DNA of 64,000 bases from Candidatus Woesebacteria bacterium (GCA_016432365.1 CP066686.1:474906-538905); one strand, 5' to 3'; shown: positions 1 through 22,513, counted from the first letter of the stretch. Numbers and translations are program-made. Notes: generated by a model not told the origin, from the letters alone.

Positions 1-979
1 TGTTATTTTTGAAAAGAAATTTGTGCACACGGAAAGCCTTCTTTCGGGATATTTCGATTACAGACAACATTTTGTGAATTTATATAAACTTTTTATTTCC
101 CGAGAGTGGGGATATGGCTCGTCAGGTTTTCCCAACGAAAAGCTAAACCTATCACTTGGAATTGTGCAGTGGGTCACGGGGTTAGTTATCCTACCTGTTT
201 TGGCAATTTTTAATTTTCGTAAAAACAAGAAAGTTTCATTGTTCGCTTTCGGTTTGATTTTTTTAACACTCCTTAGCATCTTCATGATACATATGAAATC
301 GAGTTTTATTTGGGCGCTTATTCCGCCCCTGTGGTATCTGCAGTTCCCGTGGAGATTTTTGGCCGTATGTATCTTTTTACTCTGTGTCTTATCGGGATTT
401 GCCGTCTATTTTGCAGGACGATTTAAGTATGTTTTGGGGATAGTTTTAGTTATTGCTTCTTTTGTCCTTACAATTTCTTTTTATATTCCAAAAAGCTGGT
501 TAAATATAACTGATACCGACAAGTTTTCGGATATATCTTGGGAAAAGCAACTCACGATTAGCATCTTTGATTACTTGCCGATTTATGGGATATTGCCTCC
601 ATGGAGCAAAGCTCCGGAATTTCCGGAAGTTTTATACGGAGTCGTGAAGTTTTTGGAATATAAAAAGGGGAGTGATTTTCAAACGGGGACAGTCGAGGTG
701 TCAAAGGATTCTCTTATTCGTGTTCCACTTTTTGATTTTCCCGGTATGGTTGTCAGAGTTGATGAAAAAATAGTTTCTCATATTAATGATAATTGCAGTG
801 AAGAGAGGTACTGTCGCGGACTCATTACTTTTTCGGTTCCTTCAGGAAAACACAATATTGATATCAGGCTCTCAGATACTCCGATTAGAAAAATCGGTAA
901 CACTTTAACCTTATTAAGTTTTTTAGCTGTGATACTACTGGCAATATCATTTAAAAGAAATGAAAAAAATACTACTTAA
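1..979 (+). CDS. YfhO-family GT-C membrane glycosyltransferase-like protein, C-terminal ~320 aa (5' end lies upstream of the window)
   Basis: Frame 2 is open from nt 2 with no in-frame ATG near 23. Contains the QFPWRFL motif and the C-terminal FDFPGMVVRVDEK...SGKHNIDIRL block shared with the paralogs at 3262, 4889 and 11411. Confidence 0.55.
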   Translation, partial: VIFEKKFVHTESLLSGYFDYRQHFVNLYKLFISREWGYGSSGFPNEKLNLSLGIVQWVTGLVILPVLAIFNFRKNKKVSLFAFGLIFLTLLSIFMIHMKSSFIWALIPPLWYLQFPWRFLAVCIFLLCVLSGFAVYFAGRFKYVLGIVLVIASFVLTISFYIPKSWLNITDTDKFSDISWEKQLTISIFDYLPIYGILPPWSKAPEFPEVLYGVVKFLEYKKGSDFQTGTVEVSKDSLIRVPLFDFPGMVVRVDEKIVSHINDNCSEERYCRGLITFSVPSGKHNIDIRLSDTPIRKIGNTLTLLSFLAVILLAISFKRNEKNTT

Positions 980-3284
980 GATCTGGCCTTTTATAAGTAT
1001 GATTTTTATTGTCCTTGTTTTTTTTTGGAAAGTTTTAATATTAGGGGAAGTTCCGATTCCCGGAGACTTCATTGTAGGGACATACTACCCTTGGTTAGAT
1101 TATAAATGGAATTATCAGGTCGGTGTTCCTGTGAAGAATCCAATTACTTCTGACGTCGTGTCAATTGTGTATCCTCTTAGGAGCTTCGCAACGGAGATTC
1201 TTAAACAGGGGCATTTGCCTTTATGGAATCCATTTATGTTTAATGGGACCCCTCTTCTTGCTGATTTTCAGGTTGCTGTTTTGTCGCCTACTATGATATT
1301 TTATTTTTTCCTTCCTAAAATTTGGGCTTGGACTTCTCAGATTGTGGCCCAGCCAATCTTAGCCAGTTTTTTTACTTACTTGCTTTTAAGGCATTTCGGT
1401 TTGAAAAAAATCGAATCCATTTTCGGGGGGATTTTCTATGCTTTTAGTGGATTCAATATTATATGGATGGAATGGAATGCCAACACCCTTACGGCTGCTT
1501 TTATTCCACTTTCGATTTTATTAGTTGATAAATTTATTAAGGAGGGAAAATTATATTGGGGATTACTCCTATCGGTGTGTATTTGTTTTCAAATACTTTC
1601 AGGTTATCCGCAAGTTGCAATATACGGAATGATGGCGATTTTAATACTTCTATATTTTCGTATAAAAATATTAACAAAACTGAAGATTTTTCAGACATTA
1701 TTTTTTATAACTTCGGGATTGTTGCTTTCGTCAATTATTGTGGTTCCTGGATTAGAATTTATTTTAAATTCTCAAAGAAGGTATGGACTATTAGAATCTA
1801 ATTTAATATATTTTCCCTGGCAAAACCTAATAACTTTTCTTGCCCCTGATTATTTTGGGAATCCTGCCACGATCAACTACTTTGGTCTAGGTAATTATAC
1901 AGTCAATGCTGGTTACTCGGGCATTGTTGTATTTACCCTTGCGATAATAGGCATTTTTCAGTACTGGGGAAAAATAGAAGTCAAATACTTTTTGACCCTT
2001 ATAGTATTAGCTCTTTTAATGACACTTCCCACCCCCATAGCTAAAGCTATTTTTAATTCTCCGATCCCCGCAATCTCGGCATCTTCAACAACTAGGATTT
2101 TGGTGTTAGTAAATTTATCTTTGTGCATTCTCGCTGCATACGGAATCTCCACTTTGTTTAACAAGAAAAAGGTAGCAAGTATTGGTATGGTTTTCATACC
2201 ACTAATTATTCTTTCAATAGTCTCAGTGTTTACTTTTTTCATAGGAATACATAGCAGTGTTTCTTTAAGGAATATGATATTGCCGATAGCGCTTTCTGTT
2301 TCGACAATAGTTTCTCTGCTAATAATAAATACCCCGCAGGTAACTAAAAATTTTAAATACACACTGATCATAGGAGTATGTTTTTTAGCAGTAGCGGAAC
2401 TTTTTAGATATGGGTGGAAATATACTCCGTTTTCTTCGCCAAAATTAATCTTTCCAGATACGCCGGTTCTAACTTTTTTTCAAGATATTAAAAAACCATT
2501 CAGGTTTTCGGCCGGTAATGTAGTGCCAATGAACATGTGGGTTCCTTACGATCTCGAGTCGGTTTCGGGTTATGATGCCTTATATCCAATACGGTGGGCC
2601 AGATTATTGAATACAATAAATAACCAAGATATTCAATTTACAACCTTTTCTTATTACGCGCCCTTCGAACATTATAATAGTCCTTGGTTTGATTTATTAA
2701 ATAACGAATATCTGATGGTGCTTAAACCGGCAGATAAGCCCGAAAATTGGCCATTGATTAAACAGGTGCAAAAATTAGGTAAATTTAAACAAGTTTTTCA
2801 GGATAAATCTGTTGTGATTTTTAAAAATACCACAGCTGCACCCAGAGCATTTTTTGTTTCAGACTGGGATATTAAATCAGATGAGGATGCCCTTTCTGTT
2901 TTAATGGCTCCGAATTTTCCTCTTGATAAGAAGATAATAATTGATAGAAATATTAATTTTGTTAAAAGTAAAGATTCGCAAAGCAACGTAGTATACAGTT
3001 TATATACGCCAACCAAAAGTATTCTTAATATAAACACCAATAAAGACGGATTTTTGTTTGTATCCGATGCATGGTATCCTGGATGGAAGGCTAAAGTGGA
3101 CGGAAACGACACTTATGTATATAAAGCAGATTATTCATTTCGTGCAGTGCCGGTTACCAGCGGGACTCATGAGGTGGAATTTTGGTACGAACCCGAATCT
3201 TTGAAGTTGGGGCAAATTCTGTCTCTAGCAACAATGGTATGCTTATTGGGGGTATTTATATATGAAAATAAAGTTTTTTCTTAA
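960..3284 (+). CDS. YfhO-family polytopic membrane protein (GT-C type, lipid-linked sugar transferase candidate), 774 aa
   Basis: ATG start at 960. Many TM segments. N-terminal HLPLWNPFMFNGTPLLADFQ block and C-terminal AWYPGWKAKVDGNDTYVYKADYSFRAVPVTSGTHEVEFWYEP block are typical of the YfhO family (recalled from B. subtilis YfhO). Confidence 0.6.
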   Translation: MKKILLKIWPFISMIFIVLVFFWKVLILGEVPIPGDFIVGTYYPWLDYKWNYQVGVPVKNPITSDVVSIVYPLRSFATEILKQGHLPLWNPFMFNGTPLLADFQVAVLSPTMIFYFFLPKIWAWTSQIVAQPILASFFTYLLLRHFGLKKIESIFGGIFYAFSGFNIIWMEWNANTLTAAFIPLSILLVDKFIKEGKLYWGLLLSVCICFQILSGYPQVAIYGMMAILILLYFRIKILTKLKIFQTLFFITSGLLLSSIIVVPGLEFILNSQRRYGLLESNLIYFPWQNLITFLAPDYFGNPATINYFGLGNYTVNAGYSGIVVFTLAIIGIFQYWGKIEVKYFLTLIVLALLMTLPTPIAKAIFNSPIPAISASSTTRILVLVNLSLCILAAYGISTLFNKKKVASIGMVFIPLIILSIVSVFTFFIGIHSSVSLRNMILPIALSVSTIVSLLIINTPQVTKNFKYTLIIGVCFLAVAELFRYGWKYTPFSSPKLIFPDTPVLTFFQDIKKPFRFSAGNVVPMNMWVPYDLESVSGYDALYPIRWARLLNTINNQDIQFTTFSYYAPFEHYNSPWFDLLNNEYLMVLKPADKPENWPLIKQVQKLGKFKQVFQDKSVVIFKNTTAAPRAFFVSDWDIKSDEDALSVLMAPNFPLDKKIIIDRNINFVKSKDSQSNVVYSLYTPTKSILNINTNKDGFLFVSDAWYPGWKAKVDGNDTYVYKADYSFRAVPVTSGTHEVEFWYEPESLKLGQILSLATMVCLLGVFIYENKVFS

Positions 3285-4917
3285 TAATCATTTCTGGATT
3301 TTGATTTTTGCTCTTTCGGCTCTTGTCGTCTGGCCGTTATTTATGCCCGGATATTTTTCTCATCACGACAATCTTCAGGCGATGAGGATTTTTGAGATGA
3401 GGAAGTGTTTTGCCGATTTCCAAATCCCTTGCCGATGGGTTCCCGATATGGGTTACGGAAACGGGTACCCACTTTTTAATTTTTATGGTCCTCTATCTTA
3501 CTATTTAGGAGCCGTTGTGAGTTTTATTTTAGGCTACATTTGGTCAGCAAAACTTTTGTTTTTTCTTCCATTAGTTGTTGGTGGGCTGGGGATGTATCTT
3601 CTGGGAAGAGAACTTTTTGGAAAGATTCCCGGAGCCGTTTCCGCAATACTTTATTTGTTTGCGCCGTACAGGGCGCTAGATTCATACGTAAGAGGGGCTG
3701 TGGGGGAGAGTTTTGCGCTTGCAATCATCCCCTTTGTTTATTACTTGTATTTAAGATTGATTAAAACTAAAGAAAAGAAATATTTTGCACTCGCCATAGT
3801 TTCGATGTCGCTTCTTTTGGTGTCCCACAACATAATGACATTAATTTTTACACCACTGATAATTATATGGGTTTTCTTTTTGTTATATAGAGACAAATGG
3901 AATGGATTAAAAATTGCAATTTTGAGCTTGGGTTTGGCCGTCGGCCTTTCGGCTTTTTTCATTCTACCCGCATTTTTAGAAAAGAGTTTAGTCCAAACGG
4001 AAGCATTGACCAGAAATGAATTGGATTTCAGGGCTCAGTTTGTAAAGGTTTCACAATTATTTATTGACAGGTCGTGGAATTATTCGGGATCCCAGCCCCA
4101 GTCTGCTAATACAATTTCTTACCAAATTGGTTGGCCCCATTGGTGGCTTGTGGTTTTGTCTCTTGTTGCTGTGATTTTTTGTAAGAAAAGAAAAGACATC
4201 GCACTTTTTACTTTTTACTTTTTACTTTTTACTTTTGGAGTGTATATGACTCACAATAAATCATCTTTTATCTGGGAATATATAAAAATATTGGCTTATA
4301 TTCAGTTTCCGTGGAGATTTTTGTCAGTTGTAATTCTTTCGTCAAGCTTACTCGGTGGTTATTTTATATTTATCTTTAAAGGTAAGGTTCGCTACCTATT
4401 CGCTATCACCTTTTCGTTATTAGCCATATTATTGAACTGGCAGTATTTCAAGCCAGAGCATTTCTATTTCAACCTGACAGACAAAGAGCTTCTTTCCGGC
4501 CAAAACTTTATCGACCAGCAAAAGGGTGCTCTTTTAGACTATCTTCCCAAAACGGCACTTGAACCCAGAGAGCTTGCTCCGGATGCGCCGTATGTGGTTT
4601 CGGGAAAGGCGGAAATATTTGATTTTATAAATAAATCAAATAGGTGGACGTTTAAAACAGACGCTGTAAGCGAGTCGAAGGTGGAGATACCGGTTTTTGA
4701 TTTTCCGGGTTGGACCGTATTTGTGAACGGTAAAGAAGTTGTCCACACAAACGACAATGTTTTGGGTAGAATTGGCGTAACTATACCGGGAGGAAAATCG
4801 AATGTCGAAGGAAAATTCAAAAATACACCCATAAGAATTTTGGGGAACACCCTTACGGGGTTAAGTTTTGTTTTATTGGTATTAATATATGCAAAAGGTA
4901 AAAAACTTTTTAGCTAA
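3262..4917 (+). CDS. YfhO-like GT-C membrane protein paralog (HHD...FPWRFL...FDFPGW family), 551 aa
   Basis: ATG at 3262, overlapping the upstream gene by 23 nt. Motifs SHHDNLQAMRIFEM, YIQFPWRFL and C-terminal FDFPGWTVFVNGKEVVH. Multi-TM. Confidence 0.55.
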   Translation: MKIKFFLNNHFWILIFALSALVVWPLFMPGYFSHHDNLQAMRIFEMRKCFADFQIPCRWVPDMGYGNGYPLFNFYGPLSYYLGAVVSFILGYIWSAKLLFFLPLVVGGLGMYLLGRELFGKIPGAVSAILYLFAPYRALDSYVRGAVGESFALAIIPFVYYLYLRLIKTKEKKYFALAIVSMSLLLVSHNIMTLIFTPLIIIWVFFLLYRDKWNGLKIAILSLGLAVGLSAFFILPAFLEKSLVQTEALTRNELDFRAQFVKVSQLFIDRSWNYSGSQPQSANTISYQIGWPHWWLVVLSLVAVIFCKKRKDIALFTFYFLLFTFGVYMTHNKSSFIWEYIKILAYIQFPWRFLSVVILSSSLLGGYFIFIFKGKVRYLFAITFSLLAILLNWQYFKPEHFYFNLTDKELLSGQNFIDQQKGALLDYLPKTALEPRELAPDAPYVVSGKAEIFDFINKSNRWTFKTDAVSESKVEIPVFDFPGWTVFVNGKEVVHTNDNVLGRIGVTIPGGKSNVEGKFKNTPIRILGNTLTGLSFVLLVLIYAKGKKLFS

Positions 4918-6493
4918 ACCCGCACACCAAAAATTTGGTGGTGTGGGTAAATATCCCTTTCTGACGATTCTGTTATTGTCTATCCCTGCTGTTTGGGCAT
5001 TATTTGTACCGGGATATTTTGGCGCCAGCGATGACCTGCATATTGGATGGTTATTTGAGATGAATAGATCACTATCTCTCGGTCAATTTCCTCCCAGATT
5101 TGTTCCGGATCTTTCTTTTGGATTTGGCTACCCTCTTTTTAATTTTGTTTTTCCGTTACCTTTTTACATCGGAGAAATATTCCATAGGTTAGGGTTATCT
5201 TTTGTCGACAGCGTTAAAGCAATATTCCTTATAAGCGTGCCGCTTTCAATGTACTTCATGTATAAGTTTATAAAAGAGTATGCAAACGAGTTCTTGGCGC
5301 TTGCGGGGGCTGTTTTATATGTTTATACCCCGTATAGGGCTACAGACATATATGTCAGGGGGGCAATAGGGGAAATATTGGCGTTTGTTTTCCCTCCACT
5401 AATTGCTTTTGCGATCGCAAAGATAGGTAAAGACAAATCGGCTAAATGGATATGTCTTCTGTCATTGGGTGTAGCGGGACTTATCTTATCTCACGATATC
5501 ATGGCCTATATGTTTATTCCGTTTTTGGCTTTATTTGCGTTGGTACAATGGAAAGGATTACTCAGGTCTGTTTACGGATTTATATTGGGTCTCTTAGTAA
5601 GTTTGTATTTTTGGCTTCCGGCGCTCGTTGAGAGCAAGTTGATGAAGTATGGGACGGGAAATTTTGATTTTATTGATCATTTCCCCACCCTTAGACAACT
5701 GGTCACTCCGTATTTTGGATACGGCGCGTCAGTCCCGGGGCCCTATGACGGAATGAGTTTTTTTATGGGTGCGATAAATGTATTGTTGATTGTCGCCGCA
5801 ATAGTTTTTGTCAAGAAAGGTAGGATAGTTATATATTGGGCGCTTTTTACAATAGCCGTTTCTGTGTTTCTGATGAATTTTAGATCTACTTCTTTATGGA
5901 AAATCATTCCATACTTACCGTACTTTCAGTTTCCATGGAGGTTTTTAAGTTTAACTACGTTTACAACTTCAGTTCTTGTAATATTGTTCGATAAATTCAA
6001 ATTTGCGAAGGCTATTGGTGTCGTAATTATTCTTGCGGCCATCGCTCTTAATTTTACAAATTACAAACCACATGACTTTTTAGGGAGAACTGATGCTTAT
6101 TATTTAAATAGATATATTCCGTTCCCTGTTGCCTCTGCCGAATACCTTAAAACTCAGGAAGAGTATTTGCGCTTACCGGCCGCAACAGAAGTACGACCTG
6201 ATAAAATCTCCCCAAACTCCGGAATGAATACTACATTCAATGTAAGCTATACAAAAGAAACTGTTTATGATTATTACAAATACTATTTCCCTGGATGGGT
6301 GGTTTCAGTTGACGGGAAACAGGTAGAAGTCTACGCCGGCAAACCGTATGGTCAGGTTGAGTTTAAGGTTCCCGCGGGGGAACATCAGGTCGAAGTAGCA
6401 TTTCGGGAAACAAAGTTTAGGGGAATATTAGATATAATTTCCTTGCTGAGTATTCTGGGTATTGTTACAATGCTTGTTAGAAAAAACAAATGA
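4889..6493 (+). CDS. YfhO-like GT-C membrane protein paralog, 534 aa
   Basis: ATG at 4889. Motifs ASDDLHIGWLFEM, YFQFPWRFL and YYFPGWVVSVDGKQVEVY. Overlaps its upstream neighbour by 29 nt. Confidence 0.55.
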   Translation: MQKVKNFLAKPAHQKFGGVGKYPFLTILLLSIPAVWALFVPGYFGASDDLHIGWLFEMNRSLSLGQFPPRFVPDLSFGFGYPLFNFVFPLPFYIGEIFHRLGLSFVDSVKAIFLISVPLSMYFMYKFIKEYANEFLALAGAVLYVYTPYRATDIYVRGAIGEILAFVFPPLIAFAIAKIGKDKSAKWICLLSLGVAGLILSHDIMAYMFIPFLALFALVQWKGLLRSVYGFILGLLVSLYFWLPALVESKLMKYGTGNFDFIDHFPTLRQLVTPYFGYGASVPGPYDGMSFFMGAINVLLIVAAIVFVKKGRIVIYWALFTIAVSVFLMNFRSTSLWKIIPYLPYFQFPWRFLSLTTFTTSVLVILFDKFKFAKAIGVVIILAAIALNFTNYKPHDFLGRTDAYYLNRYIPFPVASAEYLKTQEEYLRLPAATEVRPDKISPNSGMNTTFNVSYTKETVYDYYKYYFPGWVVSVDGKQVEVYAGKPYGQVEFKVPAGEHQVEVAFRETKFRGILDIISLLSILGIVTMLVRKNK

Positions 6494-7842
6494 CAAAAAA
6501 AATCCTCATGGTTCTAACGATAGGAGTTTTAATCCGGTTGTTCTTGGCATTTTCGACATTTCATTCGGATGTCCAGCCGTTCTATTTTGCCGGCGAGGTG
6601 ATTGCCAAAGGAAATGTTTTAAATTTTTACGACTATTTAAGGAACTTGCCTACGCACGACCCGATTTTGAAAATCTATCCTGCTAACCTCTTTAATTACC
6701 CGCCTTTGGTTTACTTTTTCTTGGGCCCGATCAGTTATTTAGTCTCCCTTCCATTCAGCAGAGATCTTCTTCATGGCTTTATATTCAATTTGCCCGCACT
6801 TTTGGGCAATATTCAACTTAATTTTTTGCTACTTATTCTAAAATTTCCGTACCTGCCTTTTGATTTGGGGATAGCCGCTTTACTTTATAAATTTTTCAAA
6901 GATCCCAAAAACAAATTTTTGGCGTTTACCCTATGGATGTTTAATCCTATTAACTTATACGCAACATATATGATGGGACAGTTTGATGTTATCCCCACAT
7001 TTCTGGCCGTTCTTGCGCTTTTTGTGGCTGTCAAAAAAGAAAAATATTTTTTGGCGGCACTGTTTCTGGGATTGGGTGCTTCTTTTAAGATATTCCCGTT
7101 TTTATTTCTTGTACCGCTCGCGTTGATGAAGAGTAAGTGGTTGGATAGAATTAAAATCCTTGGAATCGGAACGTTAACATATCTTGCAACCATCCTACCT
7201 TTCATAAATTCACACGGATTTAGAGCTACTGCCTTACTTGCCGGTCAAACAACAAAAAGTTTGTATGCTACGCTTCCCATATCGGGTGGGGAGGCTATAA
7301 TATTTTTTCCTTTTTTTATACTTTTTACATATATTATTTTCTTTTTCATCAAGGGTACGGCAGACAATCTCTGGCAAAGATTTTTTATGGTGATTTTACT
7401 CTTCTTTGTTTTTACCCATACCCATCCTCAATGGTTTTTATGGTTAACGCCGTTTTTAGTTATTGATTTAATTAAGTCGCGTTTTTCCCATTGGCCGCTA
7501 ACCATTACATTGTTTGTGGTCTGGCTTGGACAGGTGACTTTTTTTGACCCGGGTCTGTCTGTTTGGCTTTTCTCTCCAATTTCTCCAGGCCTCTATGGCC
7601 TGCCTGGTATTTGGACCAATCTGGGAATAAATTTAGACATAAACTTTGCAAGAAGTATCTTACAAACTGTGTTTGTTTCGGTGGCCGCCTATTTTATTTA
7701 TAACAGCATTCAAGAAGACCTCGCAGCTCGCTGCGAGGATGAATTGAACGCCGATATGTCATCCTCCCTTAAGGGGAAACCTCGCACTTTAGTGCGTGGA
7801 GGATATCATAATTATTTCCCCAAAAAAGTTGATAAAAAATGA
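6490..7842 (+). CDS. DUF2029/GT87-like polytopic membrane glycosyltransferase candidate, 450 aa (C-terminal ~40 codons run through a GC-rich palindromic element)
   Basis: ATG at 6490 (ATGA overlap). Motif GLGASFKIFPFLFLVPLAL resembles the K(I/L)YP region of the DUF2029 / alpha-mannosyltransferase GT-C family. Multi-TM. Confidence 0.45.
   Translation: MTKKILMVLTIGVLIRLFLAFSTFHSDVQPFYFAGEVIAKGNVLNFYDYLRNLPTHDPILKIYPANLFNYPPLVYFFLGPISYLVSLPFSRDLLHGFIFNLPALLGNIQLNFLLLILKFPYLPFDLGIAALLYKFFKDPKNKFLAFTLWMFNPINLYATYMMGQFDVIPTFLAVLALFVAVKKEKYFLAALFLGLGASFKIFPFLFLVPLALMKSKWLDRIKILGIGTLTYLATILPFINSHGFRATALLAGQTTKSLYATLPISGGEAIIFFPFFILFTYIIFFFIKGTADNLWQRFFMVILLFFVFTHTHPQWFLWLTPFLVIDLIKSRFSHWPLTITLFVVWLGQVTFFDPGLSVWLFSPISPGLYGLPGIWTNLGINLDINFARSILQTVFVSVAAYFIYNSIQEDLAARCEDELNADMSSSLKGKPRTLVRGGYHNYFPKKVDKK
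7719..7803 (+). repeat. GC-rich multi-hairpin palindromic element (copy A) embedded in the last ~40 codons of gene 6490..7842
   Basis: CCTCGCAGC-TC-GCTGCGAGG (7719..7738). GGATGA-N16-TCATCC (7737..7764). CGCAC-TTTA-GTGCG with TCCTCC/GGAGGA outer pairing (7762..7803). Local GC is far above the surroundings. Confidence 0.4.
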
Positions 7843-9485: not shown

Positions 9486-9529
9486 CGAACTCAAAACAAA
9501 ATGGAGAATTAATACATTTTTTGAGTTCG
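9486..9529 (+). terminator. Stem-loop (11-bp stem CGAACTCAAAA / TTTTGAGTTCG, ~22-nt loop) immediately after the stop of gene 7839..9485; possible terminator or attenuator, no clean U-tail
   Basis: Read directly. Begins 1 nt after the TAG at 9483..9485. Confidence 0.35.
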
Positions 9530-9553
9530 GTATATAGGAATACTACGTTTGCC

Positions 9554-9584
9554 AAACAAAATGTCAAAAAGTGACATTTTGTTT
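9554..9584 (+). promoter_or_regulatory. 13-bp perfect inverted repeat AAACAAAATGTCA-N5-TGACATTTTGTTT (core TGTCA-N5-TGACA), 12 nt upstream of ATG 9597: candidate operator or RNA hairpin
   Basis: Read directly: 9554..9566 is the reverse complement of 9572..9584. Confidence 0.45.
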
Positions 9585-15004: not shown

Positions 15005-15024
15005 TGCTAAATTATAATGGTTAT

Positions 15025-16443
15025 ATGGCCCGTAAATCCATTCTTGTTCTTCTCGGAATAGTTATCATGGGATTGTTTCTCAGGGTTTATAGAATAACAG
15101 AGCTTCCAATGTACGGTGATGAATTGACAATCGCATTGGACACCTATTCCATAATGAAAACCGGTATGGATTCCACTGGTACAAAGCTACCCGTCACATT
15201 TCAAATGGGGTCGGGGCGCCCCGGGGGATATATATATGCCTCGGTTCCTTTTGTTTATATCTTTGGTCCCACAGAGTGGGGGGTACGAAGTCTTTCAATA
15301 CTGTCTTCGTTGGGAATAATGCTCCTGATGTATTTTTTGGGAAAGAAGTTGTTTGATGAAAAAATTGGGTTGATTGCGAGTTTTATCACCTCGATTTCAC
15401 TTTGGGACATTTATCTTGCAAGAGGTGGTTTTGAGGCGCATTTTGCCCTATTTTTGGCCCTTTTTGGCATAGTATCCTACCTTTACGGAAAGTATATCCC
15501 TTGGGCTGTTGCTTGGGGACTCACAATCTTTACATACCCCACCTTTAAACTGACCCTGCCATTGATGTTTTTAGTTTTAATTTGGTTTGGTGAATTTAAA
15601 AAAGTAATAAAAAATAAATTTTTCATCATCTCGGTTATTATCCTGGCTGTTTTTGGCGGTTTGGCGATTAACGAGACATTTAAAGGGTTAAGTGAACAAC
15701 GGTTTTTAACAATAAATATATTATCTGATATAAATAACCGGGAACAGATAATTCAGCTGAATAACGCAGAAAGGACATTCTCGACACTTCCTGTATTTCT
15801 GAAGCCTGTTTTTTTCAATAAGCCATTTGAATATGCCCACATTCTCTTGGATAGTTATGGAGAAAACTTATCACCGAGTTTTTTGTATTTAAGAGGAGAT
15901 CGTAATCCGGTACATAACCCAGGAGAATGGGGGATGTTTTATTTAGCCGAGCTTCCCCTTCTTATAATTGGGTTAATTATCCTTTGGAATAGAGAAAAGA
16001 GAAAATTAATTTTGATTGGATTGTGGATTCTGATTACCCCACTTGCAACCATGCTTCTGGGCCAGACTCACGGATTACGGAATGCTCTGATGCTCCCTCC
16101 TTTTATTCTATTAGCCTCATTTGCGCTTTCGAACCTTCCAAGAAAACTAACATATTTTTTTGTTGCAGTTATATTAATTCAGTCGGTTTTTGTGCTTCAA
16201 AGAGTCTATTTTTTGGCGCCCGGTAAATTTGCCTCATTTTGGTCTTCCGAAGCTAAAATCAAATCTTTGTCGGCAATGAGTGATAAAGACAGTGGCAAAG
16301 TGATTACCTTATCAACTAAAAAGATTGACAATATTGAGTACGCATATGAAGTCTATGCAAAAATCGACCCAAATTTAGTTATTAAGCAATACGGAATCTT
16401 TCCGAAAATCTATGGAAACGTGAGAATAGACAATGCTAAATAA
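15025..16443 (+). CDS. PMT/ArnT-type (GT39/GT83-like, PMT_2) GT-C glycosyltransferase, ~472 aa
   Basis: Track ORF begins at a TTG at 15004. The first ATG is 15025 (MARKS...). Motif MYGDELTIALDTYSIMKTG in the first loop. Profile similar to 17918..19588. Confidence 0.5.
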   Translation: MARKSILVLLGIVIMGLFLRVYRITELPMYGDELTIALDTYSIMKTGMDSTGTKLPVTFQMGSGRPGGYIYASVPFVYIFGPTEWGVRSLSILSSLGIMLLMYFLGKKLFDEKIGLIASFITSISLWDIYLARGGFEAHFALFLALFGIVSYLYGKYIPWAVAWGLTIFTYPTFKLTLPLMFLVLIWFGEFKKVIKNKFFIISVIILAVFGGLAINETFKGLSEQRFLTINILSDINNREQIIQLNNAERTFSTLPVFLKPVFFNKPFEYAHILLDSYGENLSPSFLYLRGDRNPVHNPGEWGMFYLAELPLLIIGLIILWNREKRKLILIGLWILITPLATMLLGQTHGLRNALMLPPFILLASFALSNLPRKLTYFFVAVILIQSVFVLQRVYFLAPGKFASFWSSEAKIKSLSAMSDKDSGKVITLSTKKIDNIEYAYEVYAKIDPNLVIKQYGIFPKIYGNVRIDNAK

Positions 16444-17902
16444 ACTACCCCTTTTTAAAACGGCCCTTTTTTTAATAGTTTTGATATTTACCTTTATTCT
16501 TCGAGCCCACAATTATGAAAGAGTTCCCACCTCTAACCACCTGGATGAACAATTGTATGCTTGGAGCGGAATAAATTTAGTTGAAACGGGGATACCTGTC
16601 TCATGGTCAACGCTTCCGTACCCAGTCCGCTCTGAAGTGTATAAGGGAGAGGTCAATTATAAGGGCGGATCTCCCAGGGCGTCGGTGACTCTTTATAAAC
16701 CATGGCTTGATGAACCGCCACTTTTTTCGCTTATAGTGGGTTGGTTTGCTCATTTATATGGAGCCAACAGGAATGACTTTATCCCGTCTTCGTATATAAG
16801 AATACCCACGGTTTTAATAAGCACGCTTACGTCAATATTTATTTTTCTGATTGCGAAAAAAATCGGAGGGTTTTGGAGGGGGATCCTGGCAATGCTTATT
16901 TATGGAACAGTGCCGATTATGGTTTTTGCTGCAAGACTGGCGATGCCGGAGACTCTGATTGCGTTTTTATTAACTCTTACCGTCTACCTTCTTATGCTAT
17001 TTTGGCAAAAACCAAATTTTTGGTACATTGCGCCGATACCTTTAGTTGCCGGTATTGCGGGACTATCTAAACCTACCGGTTATTTACTTATCCTACTGGC
17101 CTTGTATTTTACATTCGAAAAACTCTACAAAATTGGCAAAACCAAAACGGCTATTAAGTATTGTTTGTATCTGATTATATCCTGCATTCCTTTTATTGTT
17201 GCGTTTTTTCTATACGGTATGCATTACGATGCGGAGATTTTTAAAATTATTTACGGTGTTCAATCTCAACGTCCTACGGGGTTTGGAAGTTTAGCGTGGT
17301 ATTTTATTACACCGGGCGTTGATACTGTGGTACTACGCGACAGTTGGTTTGTGTTTTGTTTAATATCTGCCGTTTATTTTATCTTTACTGCAAAAGAAGG
17401 TATTCAACGGTTTGTTACAATCCCCTTTATCTTCTCGGTTGCTGTTGTAATGTTTACAGGAGGGGAAAGCGACCTCCTTGCTTGGTACAGATACCCCAGT
17501 TATCCGTTTTTGGCGATTTTGGGGGCTTGGGGAATAGAGTACTTGGTTAAGCGTGCCGATTTTTTTACCACTTTTTTTGCAGCCGGAATGTTATTGGGCA
17601 ACAGGATGCTTCTTGTTAACGCCTTTAGGCCCAGGGTTGAGACGTTAACATATAGAGTTGTTTTTTCATCATTAATGCTTCCGTCTTTGGCTGATACCAT
17701 TTTGAATAGGGACTGGATTAAAGCGATATCCCGCCTGATTATTGTGGTGATAGTTGCTACCGGAATATGGTTTAATATTAAATATATTTACAATGCTTAT
17801 GAACTCGAGTGCCAAAGTAAAACATGTCCAATGGTTCCAACAACCCCGCTATCAAGGATGTATTTTCCATTTTTTTGGCACTTTTTGGTCTTGGAAAAAT
17901 AG
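16433..17902 (+). CDS. PMT/ArnT-type GT-C glycosyltransferase paralog, 489 aa
   Basis: ATG at 16433. Motif NHLDEQLYAWSGINLVETG. Multi-TM. Confidence 0.5.
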   Translation: MLNKLPLFKTALFLIVLIFTFILRAHNYERVPTSNHLDEQLYAWSGINLVETGIPVSWSTLPYPVRSEVYKGEVNYKGGSPRASVTLYKPWLDEPPLFSLIVGWFAHLYGANRNDFIPSSYIRIPTVLISTLTSIFIFLIAKKIGGFWRGILAMLIYGTVPIMVFAARLAMPETLIAFLLTLTVYLLMLFWQKPNFWYIAPIPLVAGIAGLSKPTGYLLILLALYFTFEKLYKIGKTKTAIKYCLYLIISCIPFIVAFFLYGMHYDAEIFKIIYGVQSQRPTGFGSLAWYFITPGVDTVVLRDSWFVFCLISAVYFIFTAKEGIQRFVTIPFIFSVAVVMFTGGESDLLAWYRYPSYPFLAILGAWGIEYLVKRADFFTTFFAAGMLLGNRMLLVNAFRPRVETLTYRVVFSSLMLPSLADTILNRDWIKAISRLIIVVIVATGIWFNIKYIYNAYELECQSKTCPMVPTTPLSRMYFPFFWHFLVLEK

Positions 17903-17917
17903 TATCATAAATAATTC

Positions 17918-19588
17918 ATGATTAAGATAATGAAGAACAAAATCACATTAATCTCATTGGTGCTGATTGTTCTTCTGGGTTTTGGTTTGAGGTTCTATAA
18001 AGTCACTTCAGTCCCCCCCGCACTTAATTGGGATGAGGTTTCGATTGGTTACAATGCGTATTCAATTCTCAAAAACGGTAGAGACGAGTGGGGTAAATTT
18101 ATGCCGTTCCATTTTAAAGCTTATGGTGAATATAAACTTCCGGCTCAGATTTATGCCTCAATTCCGGGAATCGCGATATTTGGTTTGAATGAGTTTGGTG
18201 TAAGGATTACACCGGCTGTTTATGGTGCCTTAACTGTTTTATTCCTGTTTTTTTTGACAAGAGAATTGTTTGAAAATGAATGGGTTGGTCTTACATCCTC
18301 ACTACTCCTGGCAATATCTCCTTGGCATATTCAACTGACGAGGGCTTCGTTTGAATCTAGTTTTTCCGTCTTTTGGGTTGTAATTGGCGCATGGCTTTTT
18401 GCTCGGGGTTTTAAACAAAAAAAATATTGGCTATGGTCATTATTCCCATTCGTTATTTCAATTTATACATATAACGCCGCCAGAGTCTTTACCCCACTGT
18501 TTCTGATCGTACTTTTTCTGATTTACAGAAAGAGTCTTTTGAAGGATGTGAAGATATTTATTCTTGGTATTTTAATATTTGCCGTATTAATGATTCCGCT
18601 TGCCGTTTTTATTATAAGTGGCCAAGCAACCGCCAGGCTTAAGCTTGTAAGCATTACAGACGATCCCGGTTTTGTGCAAAGGGTGAATCAGGCAAGAGGC
18701 AGTACTCACTTTCCTGAGCCCTTGCCGCGCCTCATTCATAACAAAGTTACGCATTATGTTTATGTGTTTACAGGAAATTATCTGAGCCACTTTACTCCCG
18801 ATTTTCTTTTTATTAATGGCGCAGGGCATAAACAACATCACATTCAAGGGATTGGGGAACTTTATGCAATTCAGGCTCCGTTTATCTTAATTGGCCTGTA
18901 CTTCATTTTTAGAAGTAAAAATAAATGGAGATGGCTTCTTACTTCTTGGCTAATTTTGGTATTTATCCCTGTCGCGGCAACTGTAGATAGTATTCCGAAT
19001 GCTCTAAGAACAATTCTGGCGATTATTCCTTATCAGATATTTACAGCACTTGGTTTCTACGAAACATTCATATTTTTCAAGAGGAGAAGATATTTGAGTT
19101 GGATAATTGTTGCGATTTCGGCAATATTCTTGCTGATTGGTTTTAAAGGTTATTTGAACAATTATTATAATAATTACCCTGTGTTTTATTCCCGTGATTG
19201 GCAATATGGTTACAGACAAGTTGCGTCTTTCGTAAAAGATAATTACCAAAATTACGATTTAATTGTTTTCAGTCGGGCTTATGGCGAACCCCATATGTTT
19301 ACCCTCTTTTTTCTAAACTGGAACCCGGGAAGTTATCAAAATGATCCAAATCTTGATCGCTTTGAAGCCTATCAGTGGATATGGGTTTTGAAGTTTGATA
19401 AGTTTTACTTTCCCGATCTGGGAGATTCCGGTACCCGTTATCAGGATATTGTGAATGCCAATCCGGGGAAGAGGATGTTGTTTATTGGTAAACAGGGAGA
19501 CTTTCCCGATAATTTGCCTAGGCTTTTAATAGTCGATTTCCTTAATGGCAATCGGGCTTTTGAAGTTGTAGAAAAAAATGCGAAATAA
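17918..19588 (+). CDS. PMT/ArnT-type GT-C glycosyltransferase paralog, 556 aa
   Basis: ATG at 17918. Motifs LNWDEVSIGYNAYSILKNGRDEWG and FLTRELF...ISPWHIQLTRASFE. Confidence 0.55.
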   Translation: MIKIMKNKITLISLVLIVLLGFGLRFYKVTSVPPALNWDEVSIGYNAYSILKNGRDEWGKFMPFHFKAYGEYKLPAQIYASIPGIAIFGLNEFGVRITPAVYGALTVLFLFFLTRELFENEWVGLTSSLLLAISPWHIQLTRASFESSFSVFWVVIGAWLFARGFKQKKYWLWSLFPFVISIYTYNAARVFTPLFLIVLFLIYRKSLLKDVKIFILGILIFAVLMIPLAVFIISGQATARLKLVSITDDPGFVQRVNQARGSTHFPEPLPRLIHNKVTHYVYVFTGNYLSHFTPDFLFINGAGHKQHHIQGIGELYAIQAPFILIGLYFIFRSKNKWRWLLTSWLILVFIPVAATVDSIPNALRTILAIIPYQIFTALGFYETFIFFKRRRYLSWIIVAISAIFLLIGFKGYLNNYYNNYPVFYSRDWQYGYRQVASFVKDNYQNYDLIVFSRAYGEPHMFTLFFLNWNPGSYQNDPNLDRFEAYQWIWVLKFDKFYFPDLGDSGTRYQDIVNANPGKRMLFIGKQGDFPDNLPRLLIVDFLNGNRAFEVVEKNAK

Positions 19589-20942
19589 TTTAATCCTTGC
19601 GTTTGTATTATTTCTTTTCCTGGTTTCCAGAATTTATAAGATTGCTGAAATTCCGGTATCTGTTTATTGGGATGAGGCATCTATAGGCTACAACGCATTT
19701 TCGGTCGCGACTGACCTAAAAGATGAGTGGGGAGACAAGTTACCTTTACATTTCCGAGCTTTCGGAGAATTTAAACTTCCGGTTTATATCTATAGTGTAG
19801 CTGTTTTTGTAAAATTGATCGGACTTAACGAATATGCGGTCAGACTCCCTGCCGTTTTATATTCTTTGGGAACTCTTATTATTGTTTACTTGCTTGTCAA
19901 AAAAATTACCGAAAGGGATGGACCGGCGATCCTCTCCACTTTTATCCTTAGTTTTTCACCCTGGTTTTTTATATTTTCAAGAACCGGCTATGAAGCCACT
20001 GCCGGTCTATTTTTCTTTTTTCTTGCTACCTATTTATTTTTTCTTATCGATAAAAGTAAATATTTGCTTCCGGTTTTAATGGTCGGATTTATTTTATCTT
20101 TTTATAGTTATAACTCTTTTCGGATAATTATCCCTATTTGGTTGGCAATACTTTTTATATATAAATTTCATAATACAATAGCATTAAGGAAAAATTGGTT
20201 ACCGATTTTAATTTCAGTTTTGCTTTTTGGAGTAAGTCTTATTCCTGTTTACAGACTTTATAAATATGACTCAGGTGGGGCACGTTTTGCTCAGGTAGAG
20301 ATAACAAAGAAAAAGGATTTTGTTAAAAACTATTTTTCTCACTTTAGTCCTAAATTCCTTTTTACAACAGGGGATACAAATCCTAGGAGTCAAATTCCTG
20401 GGCATGGACAACTATATTGGTTCGAATTACCGCTTATTCTTGTGGGTGTGTTTGCAATCTTTAGAAGCAAAAAACTGTTCTACTTTATTCCTTTAGTAAT
20501 TCTGCTACTGGCGCCAATCCCCGCCGCCCTTACCAAAGAATCTCCCCACGCTCTTCGCGCTCTACTTGCCGCTCCGTCTTTTGCAATTATCTCGGCTTTC
20601 GGGGTATTTTTTTTAAAGGATAATTTCAAAAAATTTGGCGTTGTAATTTTGTCGGCGGTTGTAATTGCCTACTATTTATTTTTCGAATTTTATATTCAGG
20701 ATTACATTGTCAGATACCCTAAGCAAAGTGCCAGTGCTTGGCAGTTTGAATATAAGCAGATTTTTGAGAAACAAAGAAGTGGTTTTGTTACGGATAGATA
20801 TGCCCAGCCATACATTTTTGCTCTTTACTATTTAAAATATCCTCCGGAAAAATTCAGGGAAGAAGTCAAACTAAACCCTGTCGGTAACTGGGGATTTTCA
20901 AAAGTGGCTTCATTTGACGGCTTTCAATTTACAAATCGATGA
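19578..20942 (+). CDS. PMT/ArnT-type GT-C glycosyltransferase paralog, 454 aa
   Basis: ATG at 19578. Motif VYWDEASIGYNAFSVATDLKDEWG. Confidence 0.55.
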   Translation: MRNNLILAFVLFLFLVSRIYKIAEIPVSVYWDEASIGYNAFSVATDLKDEWGDKLPLHFRAFGEFKLPVYIYSVAVFVKLIGLNEYAVRLPAVLYSLGTLIIVYLLVKKITERDGPAILSTFILSFSPWFFIFSRTGYEATAGLFFFFLATYLFFLIDKSKYLLPVLMVGFILSFYSYNSFRIIIPIWLAILFIYKFHNTIALRKNWLPILISVLLFGVSLIPVYRLYKYDSGGARFAQVEITKKKDFVKNYFSHFSPKFLFTTGDTNPRSQIPGHGQLYWFELPLILVGVFAIFRSKKLFYFIPLVILLLAPIPAALTKESPHALRALLAAPSFAIISAFGVFFLKDNFKKFGVVILSAVVIAYYLFFEFYIQDYIVRYPKQSASAWQFEYKQIFEKQRSGFVTDRYAQPYIFALYYLKYPPEKFREEVKLNPVGNWGFSKVASFDGFQFTNR

Positions 20943-22513
20943 AAAAATTATCTCTTCTGTTTTTGGCGTTAATTGTTATTTTGGGAAGTATTTTAAGATT
21001 TTACAAACTTGATCAAATCCCCCCGTCACTTAATTGGGATGAAGTCGCGGCTGGGTACAACGCTTGGACAATCGTAAATTGGGGAGCGGATGAATATGGG
21101 GCAAAGTTTCCGTTGGTTTTCAGATCATTTGGAGATGATAAACATCCGGTTCATATTTATCTGACTGCTTTGGTGTATAAAGCTTTTGGAATTTCAGATT
21201 ACAATACCAGGGCAAGTAGTGCAGCTGTTGGGGTTTTGAGTATCGTTGCAATTTATCTTTTGGCAAAGATATTATTTAAAAGTGAGGTAGCAGGTCTTTT
21301 TGCCGCACTATTTATGAGCACTTCCCCGTACGCAATTCACTACTCGAGAGGTCTGTGGGAGGCTAATTTTGCTGTATTTTTCTTTCTGGCCGGTTGTGCT
21401 ATATTTTATTTGGGTTTAACAAAGGCAAAATGGTTGGTTCCATTTTCGTTTCTATTTTGGGGAATAAGTATTTTTGCTTATCAAGCGGCCGAAATAGTTG
21501 TTCCTCCGATTGTTTTTCTTCTTTGTTTGATTCATGTAAAAGAATTTCTTAGTAACAAAAAAACTTTGATTTTGTCTGCCTCAATTGTGTTGTTTTTTGC
21601 AGGGCTGGTTATTATGGATCCAAGGATTTTGGGGTTTGCCAGAATAAACCAAACTAAATTCTCTGAGGAGGTGGTTAATAAATACGGCGGAGAAGTAAAC
21701 ATCTTTTTACATAATTATAAAGAATATTTTACTTATTCTTATCTGTTTCAAACGGGCGATGTCGGCCCGAGAGCTTCGGTCAAGGTAATTGGAGAATTCT
21801 ACAAAATAGACCTAATAATGTCTACTATCGGGCTGCTTGCAATATTAGTGAAGAAAAGATGGGAGACTTTATTCGTTTTGATATCGTGGCTCCTACTTTC
21901 CCCGATTCCGGGGGTAGTTTCATCGTTGACCCCTCATGCCACGAGAGGCATTTTTATAATGGGTCCTATACTGATATTTTCCGCCGGAGGAGCTGCCTGG
22001 GTGGTTGAATTATTTAGGAAAAATTGGCTAAAGGTGATCGTATCTGTTGTTATAATCTCGTTCTTAAGTTTTGAGGTAAAAAATTATGTTGTGTATTATT
22101 TTGGGGAATATGCAAAAAATGAGGCTATTGAATGGCAATACGGCATGAAACAATCAGCACTCTATATTGCCGAACATCCTGAATATGTCGAGGTCTTTGT
22201 AGATAAAATTCGTCAGCAACCATACATTTTCTCTCTATACTACTTAAGAGTTCCATTACCCTTATTCTTAAGCACTGTAAGGTATGATCTAAGTCAATCC
22301 AACAGTTTTAATACTGTTTCCTTCTTTTATAAATATAATTTTGGCAATTGGGACCCAATAGAAAGTTATCCTTCTCCGGGAATTTTATATATCATTACAC
22401 CCAGTTTTTATAGTGGTTTGAGGTTTAAAGACTATTTTGATGTCAAAAAACTGGTAAAATACCCTGATGGGTCTGATGCATTTTATTTAGTCGCCGGACA
22501 TGAAAAAAAATAA
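20939..22513 (+). CDS. PMT/ArnT-type GT-C glycosyltransferase paralog, 524 aa
   Basis: ATG at 20939 (ATGA overlap). Motif LNWDEVAAGYNAWTIVNWGADEYG. Confidence 0.55.
   Translation: MKKLSLLFLALIVILGSILRFYKLDQIPPSLNWDEVAAGYNAWTIVNWGADEYGAKFPLVFRSFGDDKHPVHIYLTALVYKAFGISDYNTRASSAAVGVLSIVAIYLLAKILFKSEVAGLFAALFMSTSPYAIHYSRGLWEANFAVFFFLAGCAIFYLGLTKAKWLVPFSFLFWGISIFAYQAAEIVVPPIVFLLCLIHVKEFLSNKKTLILSASIVLFFAGLVIMDPRILGFARINQTKFSEEVVNKYGGEVNIFLHNYKEYFTYSYLFQTGDVGPRASVKVIGEFYKIDLIMSTIGLLAILVKKRWETLFVLISWLLLSPIPGVVSSLTPHATRGIFIMGPILIFSAGGAAWVVELFRKNWLKVIVSVVIISFLSFEVKNYVVYYFGEYAKNEAIEWQYGMKQSALYIAEHPEYVEVFVDKIRQQPYIFSLYYLRVPLPLFLSTVRYDLSQSNSFNTVSFFYKYNFGNWDPIESYPSPGILYIITPSFYSGLRFKDYFDVKKLVKYPDGSDAFYLVAGHEKK

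Follow-up and report, generated by a model that had tools for sequence, protein, structure and literature searches.

What would a bacterium with a genome of about 1.08 Mb build with more than a dozen membrane glycosyltransferases encoded one after the other? The question is raised by a stretch of 64,000 nucleotides from a Candidatus Woesebacteria bacterium (GCA_016432365.1 CP066686.1:474906-538905), here called the window, whose first 22,513 nucleotides are filled by an array of genes for polytopic glycosyltransferases of the GT-C type. Much of bacterial diversity belongs to the Patescibacteria, also called candidate phyla radiation (CPR), which have reduced genomes and hardly any cultivated members. 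We found that the array encodes 14 GT-C enzymes, most of which have their own orthologues in the same order in related genomes, and that it looks, from its gene content and order, like a multi-step pathway that is fixed except for a small number of cassettes that vary. In the following, genes are named by the first coordinate of their open reading frame (ORF) in the window.

The GT-C array and its protein families

Fifteen ORFs fill positions 1..22513 and, on the ORF listing combined with Pfam, profile and structure evidence, 14 of them encode polytopic GT-C-type glycosyltransferases (Table 1). An earlier interpretation made from the DNA alone (the sequence-only reading) had described about 15 co-directional GT-C genes in 22 kb. 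The array is real, but the ORF 10809 encodes a protein with one transmembrane (TM) helix and a beta-sandwich, and one of the GT-C genes (13100..15004) lies on the minus strand whereas 13 are on the plus strand. Of the bases in 1..22513, 96.6% lie in the 14 GT-C ORFs. Ten junctions overlap by 4-29 nt (20, 23, 29, 4, 4, 4, 11, 11, 4 and 14 nt), and the only gaps between array genes measure 111, 42 and 15 nt. The window is almost wholly coding, with an even GC content of 0.34-0.40 throughout. For a genome of this size the density of GT-C genes is exceptional.

The first ORF, 1..979, is the 3' part of a gene of 561 codons that is present in full length in the L004 assembly, with GT2 genes upstream, and the array therefore starts about 700 nt before the window. 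The proteins are identical to those of a Candidatus Woesebacteria metagenome-assembled genome at NCBI (locus tags HYV90_*), and they were found again in two independent Logan assemblies; in an independent assembly the starts are called at 15025 for the ORF 15004..16443 and at 14989 for the ORF 13100..15004. The inverted gene 13100 would split the array into two transcription units. A scan of 1..20000 for promoter and terminator consensus sequences gave chance numbers (57 found against 59.5 expected, and 19 against 19.1) and is therefore uninformative on the operon structure.

As had been proposed, the array ORFs are GT-C enzymes, and they are not transporters; this follows from Pfam, from profile-profile comparison and from one structure prediction. 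Eleven of the 14 pass the curated Pfam gathering scores of PMT_2, PMT, PTPS_related, GT87 or YfhO. PTPS_related, a member of Pfam's GT-C clan, was matched above the cut-off by 3262 and 11411, GT87 by 6490 and 9597, and YfhO by 960. PMT_2 was matched by 4889, 15004, 16433, 17918, 19578 and 20939; 17918 passes PMT too, whereas 19578 and 20939 stay under the PMT cut-off. Both 6490 and 9597 exceed the GT87 cut-off (PF09594, 25 bits) by a narrow margin only and match part of the profile. No Pfam hit was obtained for 1..979, 7839, 13100(-) and 10809, and the three GT-C ORFs among these were tied in by BLAST or by profile and structure.

BLAST comparison among the array paralogues, with E-values of 1e-15 to 1e-79 at 24-35% identity, defines the families. 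Family A comprises 1..979, 3262, 4889 and 11411 (27-35% identity), family B 6490 and 9597 (31%), family C 7839 and 13100(-) (31%) and family D 15004, 17918, 19578 and 20939 (26-33%), with 16433 and 960 standing apart. The "YfhO-like" family of the sequence-only reading is borne out in its motifs and its BLAST grouping, but four of its members match PTPS_related (PF10131) and not YfhO. The gene 960 itself matches only positions 759-835 of the 835 positions of the YfhO profile (PF09586), which are the C-terminal 76 positions.

Profiles of each family were built from related loci and compared with each other by hhalign, with a Wzx-type flippase as an equally hydrophobic control. Family A was linked to family D with a probability of 94% and to the TM domain of 960 (residues 2-399) with 93%; family C was linked to family D with 83%, family D to 16433 with 69% and family B to the PIG-V-like 25114 with 69%. 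The Wzx control reached no more than 2% with any GT-C family profile. Since the families link together and the control does not, the shared motifs are not a by-product of AT-rich hydrophobic sequence. Five families had been named earlier; in this comparison they collapse to two deep groups, one of PMT/ArnT/YfhO/PTPS-like enzymes together with the GVWH family (family C) and one of GT87/PIG-V-like enzymes.

All motifs that had been named before were found in the array. The HHD/SDD motif follows directly after TM1, QFPWRFL, K[IL]YP and DGVWH are present, and the YPGWxAxVDG-type block, in the form [FY]PG[WMV]..V(D/N)G, lies at the C-terminus ahead of the last TM helix. WDE occurs within residues 31-38 of 17918, 19578, 20939 and the outlying 35258. 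By hydropathy, the first loop is 35-130 residues long and opens, directly after TM1, with an acidic motif (HHD, SDD, THD, WDE, GDE, HLDE, DGVWH or GHD). Since a short and basic N-terminus precedes TM1, the acidic motif is placed outside the membrane, in keeping with the topology expected before, and this is the position where GT-C enzymes carry their catalytic acidic residues. A crude Kyte-Doolittle estimate gave 7-14 TM segments in all 14 array members and in the four GT-Cs outside the array. In family D the residues R25, D39, E40, R96, R142 and R364 (17918 numbering) are invariant. The best match of the family D profile to a PDB sequence was ArnT (5EZM) with an E-value of 6e-4 over only about 160 residues, and PDB sequence searches with 17918, 3262 and 7839 as single sequences gave nothing useful.

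Family C was the only family of which the three-dimensional fold was checked. Its two members had been assigned to the minus strand; this holds for 13100, but 7839..9485 is on the plus strand. For 7839, no Pfam match was found even at E<=1, and family C matched no PDB sequence, those of STT3/PglB included, either with a single sequence or with the profile. The databases contain only 179 homologues, all unnamed. An AlphaFold2 model calculated from a 30-sequence alignment had a pLDDT of 83 and a pTM of 0.85. When it was compared with the PDB by Foldseek, all 24 matches at E<=1e-3 were GT-C enzymes (STT3/AglB/PglB, DPY19, ArnT and AftA). The best matches were to STT3/AglB/PglB (E about 1e-8, TM-score about 0.5), with which family C shares the arrangement of a TM domain and, on its C-terminal side, a mixed alpha/beta domain outside the membrane. 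In contrast, the identity to these enzymes is 10-14%, no match is seen at the sequence level and their WWD(Y/W)G motif is absent from the 30 family C members. Although STT3/PglB gave the best fold matches, we rejected an oligosaccharyltransferase assignment since WWD was found in 0/30 members, which puts family C outside the STT3/PglB family. D39, H43 and E150 are invariant in family C, and D273 and D276 are nearly so.

A protein encoded further downstream, 29109..30977 (+), has 622 residues with one N-terminal TM helix and a weak match to DUF3863 (20.9 bits, under the cut-off). Its last 80 residues or so resemble the C-terminal outside domain of 13100(-) (26% identity, E 0.005), and the common part may be a shared glycan-binding or processing domain.

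The array protein that is not a GT-C, 10809, gave no match in Pfam at E<=1 and none in NCBIfam, but it belongs to a real family with 385 cluster representatives. In the predicted structure (pLDDT 95.8) a beta-jelly-roll is preceded by an N-terminal TM helix and followed by a further helix at the C-terminus, and the fold resembles many carbohydrate-binding modules (CBMs), BcsB, lectin-like domains and phage fibre domains. Among the 14 related loci listed, a 10809 homologue follows directly after the 9597 homologue in 10/10 loci that have 9597. The GT87-like enzyme 9597 has a C-terminal tail of only about 57 residues past its last TM helix, and the model of 10809 suggests that this candidate partner probably holds the acceptor glycan for it. 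A separate acceptor-binding protein for small GT-Cs is an idea raised previously (PMC8035078), and the pair of 9597 and 10809 is a natural test of it.

Conservation of the array among relatives

At least 590 relatives of 17918 exist in species-representative genomes. The best 80 loci were examined, and all of them came from Microgenomates-type metagenome-assembled genomes (MAGs) of Woesebacteria, Daviesbacteria, Shapirobacteria and Microgenomates. Dozens of syntenic MAG records are titled "uncultured Gammaproteobacteria bacterium" (third party annotation, TPA), for example L011, L012, L014, L015, L023 and L025, and the 17918 orthologues in records with this title are 36-66% identical. The Gammaproteobacteria names look like placeholders or mislabels.

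We compared 49 full-length related loci of 21.6 kb, two of which duplicate others, and counted orthologues out of 47 at an identity of at least 40%. Each of the 49 loci has 5-10 GT-C homologues, with a median of 9. The conserved order is GT87, family C, GT87, 10809, family C on the minus strand, D, D2 (16433), D, D and D, and after the last D it continues with GT2, a short-chain dehydrogenase/reductase (SDR), GT4, PIG-V-like, epimerase, Wzx and GT2. The closest relative, L007, shows the same order with 71-92% identity, and the inverted orientation of 13100 is kept in most relatives. The array is thus not variable between strains, and the "combinatorial" glycosylation inferred earlier is contradicted by the finding that the paralogues have their own orthologues, arranged in one and the same order, in dozens of genomes at the species level.

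Conservation is highest for the GT2 gene 22500, which has an orthologue in 45/47 loci and is thereby ahead of any GT-C. It is followed by the core trio of family D, with 17918 in 32/47 (53-81% identical), 20939 in 29/47 and 19578 in 26/47. Orthologues of the GT4 gene 24099 were found in 23/47 loci, of 6490 in 18/47, of 15004 and 25114 in 16/47 each, of 13100 in 11/47, and of 9597, 10809 and 4889 in 10/47 each. At the lower end are 16433 (8/47), 7839 (2/47) and 11411 (0/47). In L007, the 13100 orthologue comes directly after the 10809 orthologue, without 11411 between them.

Orthologues are 40-92% identical, as compared to 24-35% between paralogues. Since each paralogue has its own orthologue in the loci of the relatives, the duplications predate the radiation of the class, and the low identity between paralogues excludes a recent duplication. 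From these comparisons the core is vertically inherited, with a minority of cassettes that come and go. A one-to-one orthology combined with a fixed gene order is what a multi-step pathway predicts, and this supports the reading of the array as such a pathway.

At the junction of the variable gene 11411..13165 (+) with 13100..15004 (-), the convergent 3' ends overlap by 66 nt (13100..13165). Since 11411 is a lineage-specific insertion, the inverted gene is the older of the two, and the end of 11411 was laid across its end.

The surrounding sugar-chemistry island

The whole window contains 18 GT-Cs, four of them outside the array, where about 19 had been estimated; 17 are firm and one, 53022, is under its cut-off. 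The features are collected in Table 1.

Table 1. Array genes and further glycosylation genes of the window (aa, amino acid residues)
Feature	Position	Strand	Evidence and remarks
Family A GT-C (PTPS_related/YfhO-like), partial, first array gene	1..979	+	35% identity to 3262..4917 (E 7e-52); QFPWRFL motif and C-terminal FPG block
YfhO-like GT-C, 774 aa	960..3284	+	Pfam YfhO 47.7 bits; YPGWKAKVDG
Family A GT-C, 551 aa	3262..4917	+	PTPS_related 67.6 bits (cut-off 26.4); PMT_2 23.4 bits; HHD motif following TM1 (residue 34)
Family A GT-C, 534 aa	4889..6493	+	PMT_2 27.7 bits (cut-off 26.1); PTPS_related 24.3 bits; 29% identity to 3262 (BLAST E 5e-66)
Family B GT-C, GT87/PIG-M-like, 450 aa	6490..7842	+	GT87 27.5 bits (cut-off 25); PIG-M 26.2 (cut-off 23.4)
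Family C (DGVWH) GT-C, 548 aa	7839..9485	+	Without Pfam family; fold and profile evidence
Family B GT-C, GT87-like, 389 aa	9597..10766	+	GT87 29.7 bits; 31% identity to 6490
Membrane-anchored beta-jelly-roll (CBM-like), 201 aa, not GT-C	10809..11414	+	Predicted structure
Family A GT-C, 584 aa, lineage-specific cassette	11411..13165	+	PTPS_related 43.3 bits
Family C GT-C, 629-634 aa, sole minus-strand member	13100..15004	-	31% identity to 7839 (E 8e-79); DGVWH at residue 100
Family D GT-C (PMT_2)	15004..16443	+	PMT_2 29.8 bits; 26-27% identity to 17918, 19578, 20939
PMT_2 GT-C, 489 aa, sub-family D2	16433..17902	+	PMT_2 51.5 bits
Family D GT-C, first of core trio	17918..19588	+	PMT_2 46.7 bits; PMT (PF02366) 38.6 bits (cut-off 22.7); annotated at NCBI as "glycosyltransferase family 39 protein"
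Family D GT-C, second of core trio	19578..20942	+	PMT_2 39.1 bits; WDE at residue 31
Family D GT-C, third of core trio	20939..22513	+	PMT_2 47.4 bits; WDE at residue 33
GT2 (GT-A) glycosyltransferase, 292 aa, directly after trio	22500..23378	+	Glycos_transf_2 77 bits
PIG-V-like (Mannosyl_trans2) GT-C, 381 aa	25114..26259	+	PF04188 60.2 bits
Wzx-type (Polysacc_synt) flippase	27074..28348	+	PF01943 56.6 bits, PF13440 55.5 bits
PMT_2 GT-C, 717 aa	35258..37411	+	PMT_2 33.6 bits; WDE at residue 34
ArnC-like polyprenyl-phosphate glycosyltransferase (GT2)	37408..38352	-	NCBIfam ArnC 183 bits, positions 3-299/316
GtrB/PgfS-type polyprenyl-phosphate glycosyltransferase (GT2)	45674..46633	-	GtrB sll0501 (5EKP) E 8e-52
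Probable GT-C, 541 aa	53022..54647	+	PMT_2 24.1 bits (cut-off 26.1)
AftD-like GT-C, 1165 aa	59144..62641	+	Family profile against mycobacterial AftD 6W98/6WBX, E 6e-6

Among the outlying GT-Cs, 35258 has by hydropathy a first loop of 130 residues and a C-terminal domain of 257 residues. The probable GT-C 53022 has about 10 TM helices and a DE at residue 33 after TM1, and was linked to family D with an hhalign probability of 43%. The large protein 59144 consists of about 12 N-terminal TM helices, an outside region of about 670 residues and a C-terminal TM helix. The profile of its family matches 6W98/6WBX in three collinear segments, and D41 is invariant. Pfam GT-C_AftD (PF11847) is matched by 25/35 homologues with a best E-value of 2e-10, whereas 59144 alone gives E 0.02, below the threshold. 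DUF5667 is matched by 17/35 homologues, and several homologues carry a DUF5667-like stretch in the outside region.

Two small ORFs follow 59144, one for a protein of 122 residues with four predicted TM helices (62631..62999, +) and one for a peptide of 55 residues with two TM helices (63010..63177, +). The trio 59144/62631/63010 is also present in two other assemblies (L005 and L006). In size and topology the 62631 protein corresponds to a GtrA-type flippase, but it has no Pfam match at E<=1; no GtrA-type flippase was recognised by Pfam.

Two genes encode clear polyprenyl-phosphate-sugar synthases. The protein 37408(-) reaches 139 bits with the PgfS model and has two C-terminal TM helices at 234-298. 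In 45674(-), the 5EKP match spans residues 7-310; ArnC is matched with E 1e-28 and DPMS also, the C-terminal TM helices are present, and the best NCBIfam model is PgfS with 237 bits over the full length.

By Pfam, GT2 and GT4 are represented by six genes each in the window. Sugar modification is covered by six SDR-type epimerases, dehydratases or reductases, a PseB-like and an Fcl-like enzyme among them, by one aminotransferase (LegC/PseC-like), one amidotransferase (AsnB-type) and one nucleotide-sugar dehydrogenase, and there are six methyltransferases. The best model for the amidotransferase, 47548..49395 (+), is "XrtA/PEP-CTERM system amidotransferase" (529 bits against a cut-off of 817 bits), which suggests that the enzyme does not make asparagine but amidates a uronic-acid sugar.

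Of the GT2 protein 22500, only the N-terminal 100 residues or so match GT-A structures (GmaR and SunS); the remaining C-terminal 190 residues are uncharacterised, and one hydrophobic segment is found at 237-256. Between glycosyltransferase genes lie 38352..38852 (-), coding for a DUF5667 protein of 166 residues, and 34108..34509 (-), an ORF of 133 residues for which nothing was found in Pfam at E<=1. NCBIfam gave nothing for 29109, 39782 and 27074. An apparent overlap of 160 nt between 27074..28348 and the GT2 gene 28188..29108 comes from an upstream TTG start in the ORF listing; the gene call in L001 starts this GT2 at about window position 28335 (257 residues).

The island extends past both ends of the window by 10 kb or more and measures at least 84 kb in total, about 8% of the contig of about 1.08 Mb, with roughly 20 GT-Cs. 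The flanks add a PMT gene, a PMT_2 gene, a weak PTPS_related protein (841 residues), further GT2 and GT4 genes and two more Wzx genes, one per flank. In the upstream flank, about 4.9 kb ahead of the window, a gene for a "23S rRNA intervening sequence protein" of 118 residues (L004:5144..5500; PF05635, a four-helix bundle) lies in the midst of glycosyltransferase genes.

A proposed pathway and its alternatives

On balance, the GT-Cs of the array probably form an assembly and decoration line outside the membrane, with each enzyme specific for a linkage, for a conserved envelope glycoconjugate. The GtrB/ArnC-type GT2 enzymes 45674(-) and 37408(-) would load sugars from nucleotide sugars onto undecaprenyl phosphate (Und-P), and the lipid-linked sugars would then be flipped, Wzx-type proteins being present. 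Each GT-C would add a single sugar, in a single linkage, to a single extracellular acceptor site. The acceptor would most likely be a glycan that is begun in the cytoplasm on a lipid carrier by the GT2 and GT4 enzymes and exported by Wzx. Unusual sugars would be provided by the PseB-like dehydratase, the LegC/PseC-like aminotransferase, the Fcl-like synthase, the dehydrogenase, the amidotransferase and the methyltransferases. The product would be a complex envelope glycoconjugate, that is a secondary cell-wall polysaccharide or a lipoglycan. The paralogues would represent old and non-redundant steps of one pathway, to which a few optional cassettes add lineage-specific decorations. The GT-C identity and topology, the presence of genes for donor synthases and the conservation of gene order and orthologues are observed; which lipid serves as carrier, which sugars are used, how the steps follow each other and what the acceptor is are suggested by gene content and by analogy.

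Several points weigh against the proposal. No priming phosphoglycosyltransferase of the WecA/WbaP type, no Wzy-type polymerase and no LCP ligase was seen in the window and 20 kb of its flanks, so that the model has gaps here where the polymer is concerned. About 18 GT-Cs would have to be served by no more than two clear synthases of polyprenyl-phosphate sugars. The PMT-type Asp-Glu motif of family D fits protein O-glycosylation equally well, nothing in the sequence points to a particular acceptor, and the co-transcription of the array is suggested by the gene overlaps alone.

A more far-reaching version is conceivable, and we put it forward only tentatively. The array would then be an ancestral super-operon of the Microgenomates (Woesebacteria, Daviesbacteria and relatives) with at least a dozen GT-Cs that builds a major branched heteropolysaccharide or lipoglycan outside the membrane. 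It would have the densest GT-C complement of any known genome and include the Pfam-less DGVWH family, a non-actinobacterial enzyme of the AftD type and a stand-alone, membrane-anchored CBM-like subunit presenting the acceptor to a minimal GT87. If this is true, the class would be defined by this glycan at its surface, which would probably be essential and possibly mediate attachment to hosts or particles.

One of the closest parallels is the synthesis of arabinogalactan and lipoarabinomannan in mycobacteria, where many GT-Cs (EmbA/B/C, AftA-D, PimE and Mpt), responsible for one linkage each, extend a glycan outside the membrane. After a start in the cytoplasm, these enzymes use polyprenyl-phosphate monosaccharide donors (decaprenyl-phosphate arabinose and polyprenyl-phosphate mannose), as we propose by analogy for the present locus. 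The enzyme classes overlap in the AftD-like 59144, the GT87-like 6490 and 9597 and the PMT-like members, and some mycobacterial GT-C genes are in tandem, as in embCAB. Most of them, however, are scattered over a genome that is about four times larger, whereas here 14 GT-Cs are contiguous in a genome of about 1.08 Mb. Unlike in mycobacteria, no Emb-type enzymes, no genes for decaprenyl-phosphate arabinose synthesis and no mycolate context were seen here, and the dominant families are PMT_2, PTPS_related and a family without a Pfam model. In the mycobacterial GT-Cs that use decaprenyl-phosphate arabinose, carbohydrate-binding modules help to hold the acceptor (PMC7341804); the CBM-like unit of the present locus is a separate small protein.

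A second parallel is multi-component transmembrane glycosylation, in which a GT-A-type Und-P-sugar synthase acts together with a GtrA- or Wzx-type flippase and a GT-C (PMC8035078; PMC5836110). GacK is the Wzx-type flippase of such a system (PMC8035078). We compared the Gram-positive systems CsbB/GtcA/YfhO, GtlA/GtlB, GacI/J/K/L and, from L. lactis, CsdAB, CsdCD and CsdEF with CflA. They share with the island a synthase that carries TM helices at its C-terminus and a GT-C, which in those systems decorates a wall polymer and is proposed to do so here; their flippase has candidate counterparts in the Wzx-type proteins of the island. A YfhO-like member (960) is also present, and several GT-Cs can share one flippase in these systems. 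The Wzx-type proteins of the island may flip either Und-P-monosaccharides or undecaprenyl diphosphate-linked oligosaccharides. In contrast to the one to three GT-Cs per genome in Gram-positive bacteria, each with its own synthase, about 18 GT-Cs stand here against two clear synthases, and a GtrA-family protein was not recognised. LtaS, TagO/TagF and rhamnan genes were not seen in the window by Pfam, and teichoic acid or rhamnan acceptors are not known from Patescibacteria. The statement of the sequence-only reading that one family member per locus is the norm was too strong in view of embCAB, the aft genes and three Lactococcus GT-A/GT-C pairs (PMC7341804; PMC8035078).

Of the alternatives, protein O-glycosylation deserves the most attention, although we consider it rather unlikely. 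The PMT/ArnT-like and YfhO-like GT-Cs would each modify different secreted or surface proteins (S-layer, pilins or adhesins) from Und-P-sugar donors, as in actinobacterial Pmt or in the streptococcal Pgf system (PgfS, PgfM1, PgfE and PgfM2), and many paralogues would mean many protein acceptors. Family D is indeed close to PMT (GT39) and ArnT (GT83), since it passes the PMT_2 and PMT cut-offs and has the invariant Asp-Glu in loop 1 after TM1 and conserved arginines. PMT_2, however, also holds transferases for lipid A and polysaccharides such as ArnT, which is the best PDB match of family D. This similarity to ArnT is itself marginal, and a bacterium with a Gram-positive-like envelope is not known to have lipid A. 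No MIR domain, which eukaryotic PMT members have, was found here by Pfam, and five tandem paralogues replace a single enzyme. The donor synthase 45674(-) has PgfS as its best NCBIfam model and is followed on its strand by an SDR epimerase-type gene, which echoes the pairing of pgfS and pgfE in the Pgf system. The N-terminal domain of the GT2 22500 is closest to the protein and peptide glycosyltransferases GmaR and SunS, but this match covers the generic GT-A core only. Enzymes like the GT87-, PIG-V- and AftD-like members are known to act in the synthesis of glycolipids and polysaccharides, and the Wzx flippases and more than 12 cytoplasmic GT2 and GT4 genes of the island are typical of oligo- and polysaccharide assembly.

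A diversifying repertoire of surface glycans is improbable as an explanation of the whole array. It would consist of interchangeable decoration modules, as in the phage-borne Gtr clusters for O-antigen, that are gained, lost or switched against phages or for hosts. The cassettes 11411, 16433 and 7839 do vary, and loci of the Daviesbacteria type carry extra family D paralogues with 25-32% identity. The core genes, on the other hand, are one-to-one orthologues in a fixed order across species and apparently across orders, and the divergence of the paralogues, the even GC content and the absence of mobile-element or recombinase genes among the Pfam hits of ORFs of at least 150 residues speak against it, so that this explanation fits the variable cassettes only. 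To the view that the ORFs are not glycosyltransferases at all but transporters or the like, or that they are an artefact of assembly or annotation with motifs arising from an AT-rich hydrophobic composition, we give almost no credence. The three array GT-Cs without a Pfam match of their own and the empty single-sequence PDB searches would be in line with it. It is refuted by the 11 ORFs above curated Pfam GT-C cut-offs, by the predicted GT-C fold of the Pfam-less family C, by the Wzx control that links to no family and by the presence of the same genes in the NCBI and two Logan assemblies and in more than 80 loci of other genomes.

As the sequence-only reading had supposed, we found no published description of GT-C arrays in this lineage. 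In the literature on glycosyltransferases of CPR, Patescibacteria and Microgenomates, no class-wide syntenic array of about 10-14 GT-C genes in an ultra-small genome was found described, and in that on CPR and Patescibacteria nothing was found on the DGVWH family, on an AftD-like enzyme in Patescibacteria or on a stand-alone CBM-like partner. The only remarks of relevance were on a possible pathway like that for phosphatidylinositol mannosides in a Saccharibacterium (PMC6031116) and on about eight copies of "dolichol-phosphate mannosyltransferase" in Peregrinibacteria (PMC4736985); what the lipocone paper says of Patescibacteria had no bearing on the array. Single genes routinely receive annotations such as "glycosyltransferase family 39 protein" or "ArnT-like", and the principle of the biochemistry is not new; no new mechanism is involved.

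An island of this extent and GT-C content, whose core is kept throughout the class, points to a product that is central to the cell, in envelope integrity, attachment or the evasion of phages or hosts. Enzymes of the AftD-like and GT87-like kinds are most familiar from the cell wall of mycobacteria and are here extended to a distant lineage. The locus supplies concrete targets with the PMT-like trio and its GT2, the two GtrB/ArnC-type donor synthases, a new GT-C family and the CBM-like subunit, and the envelope chemistry of a major uncultivated lineage thereby becomes directly testable.

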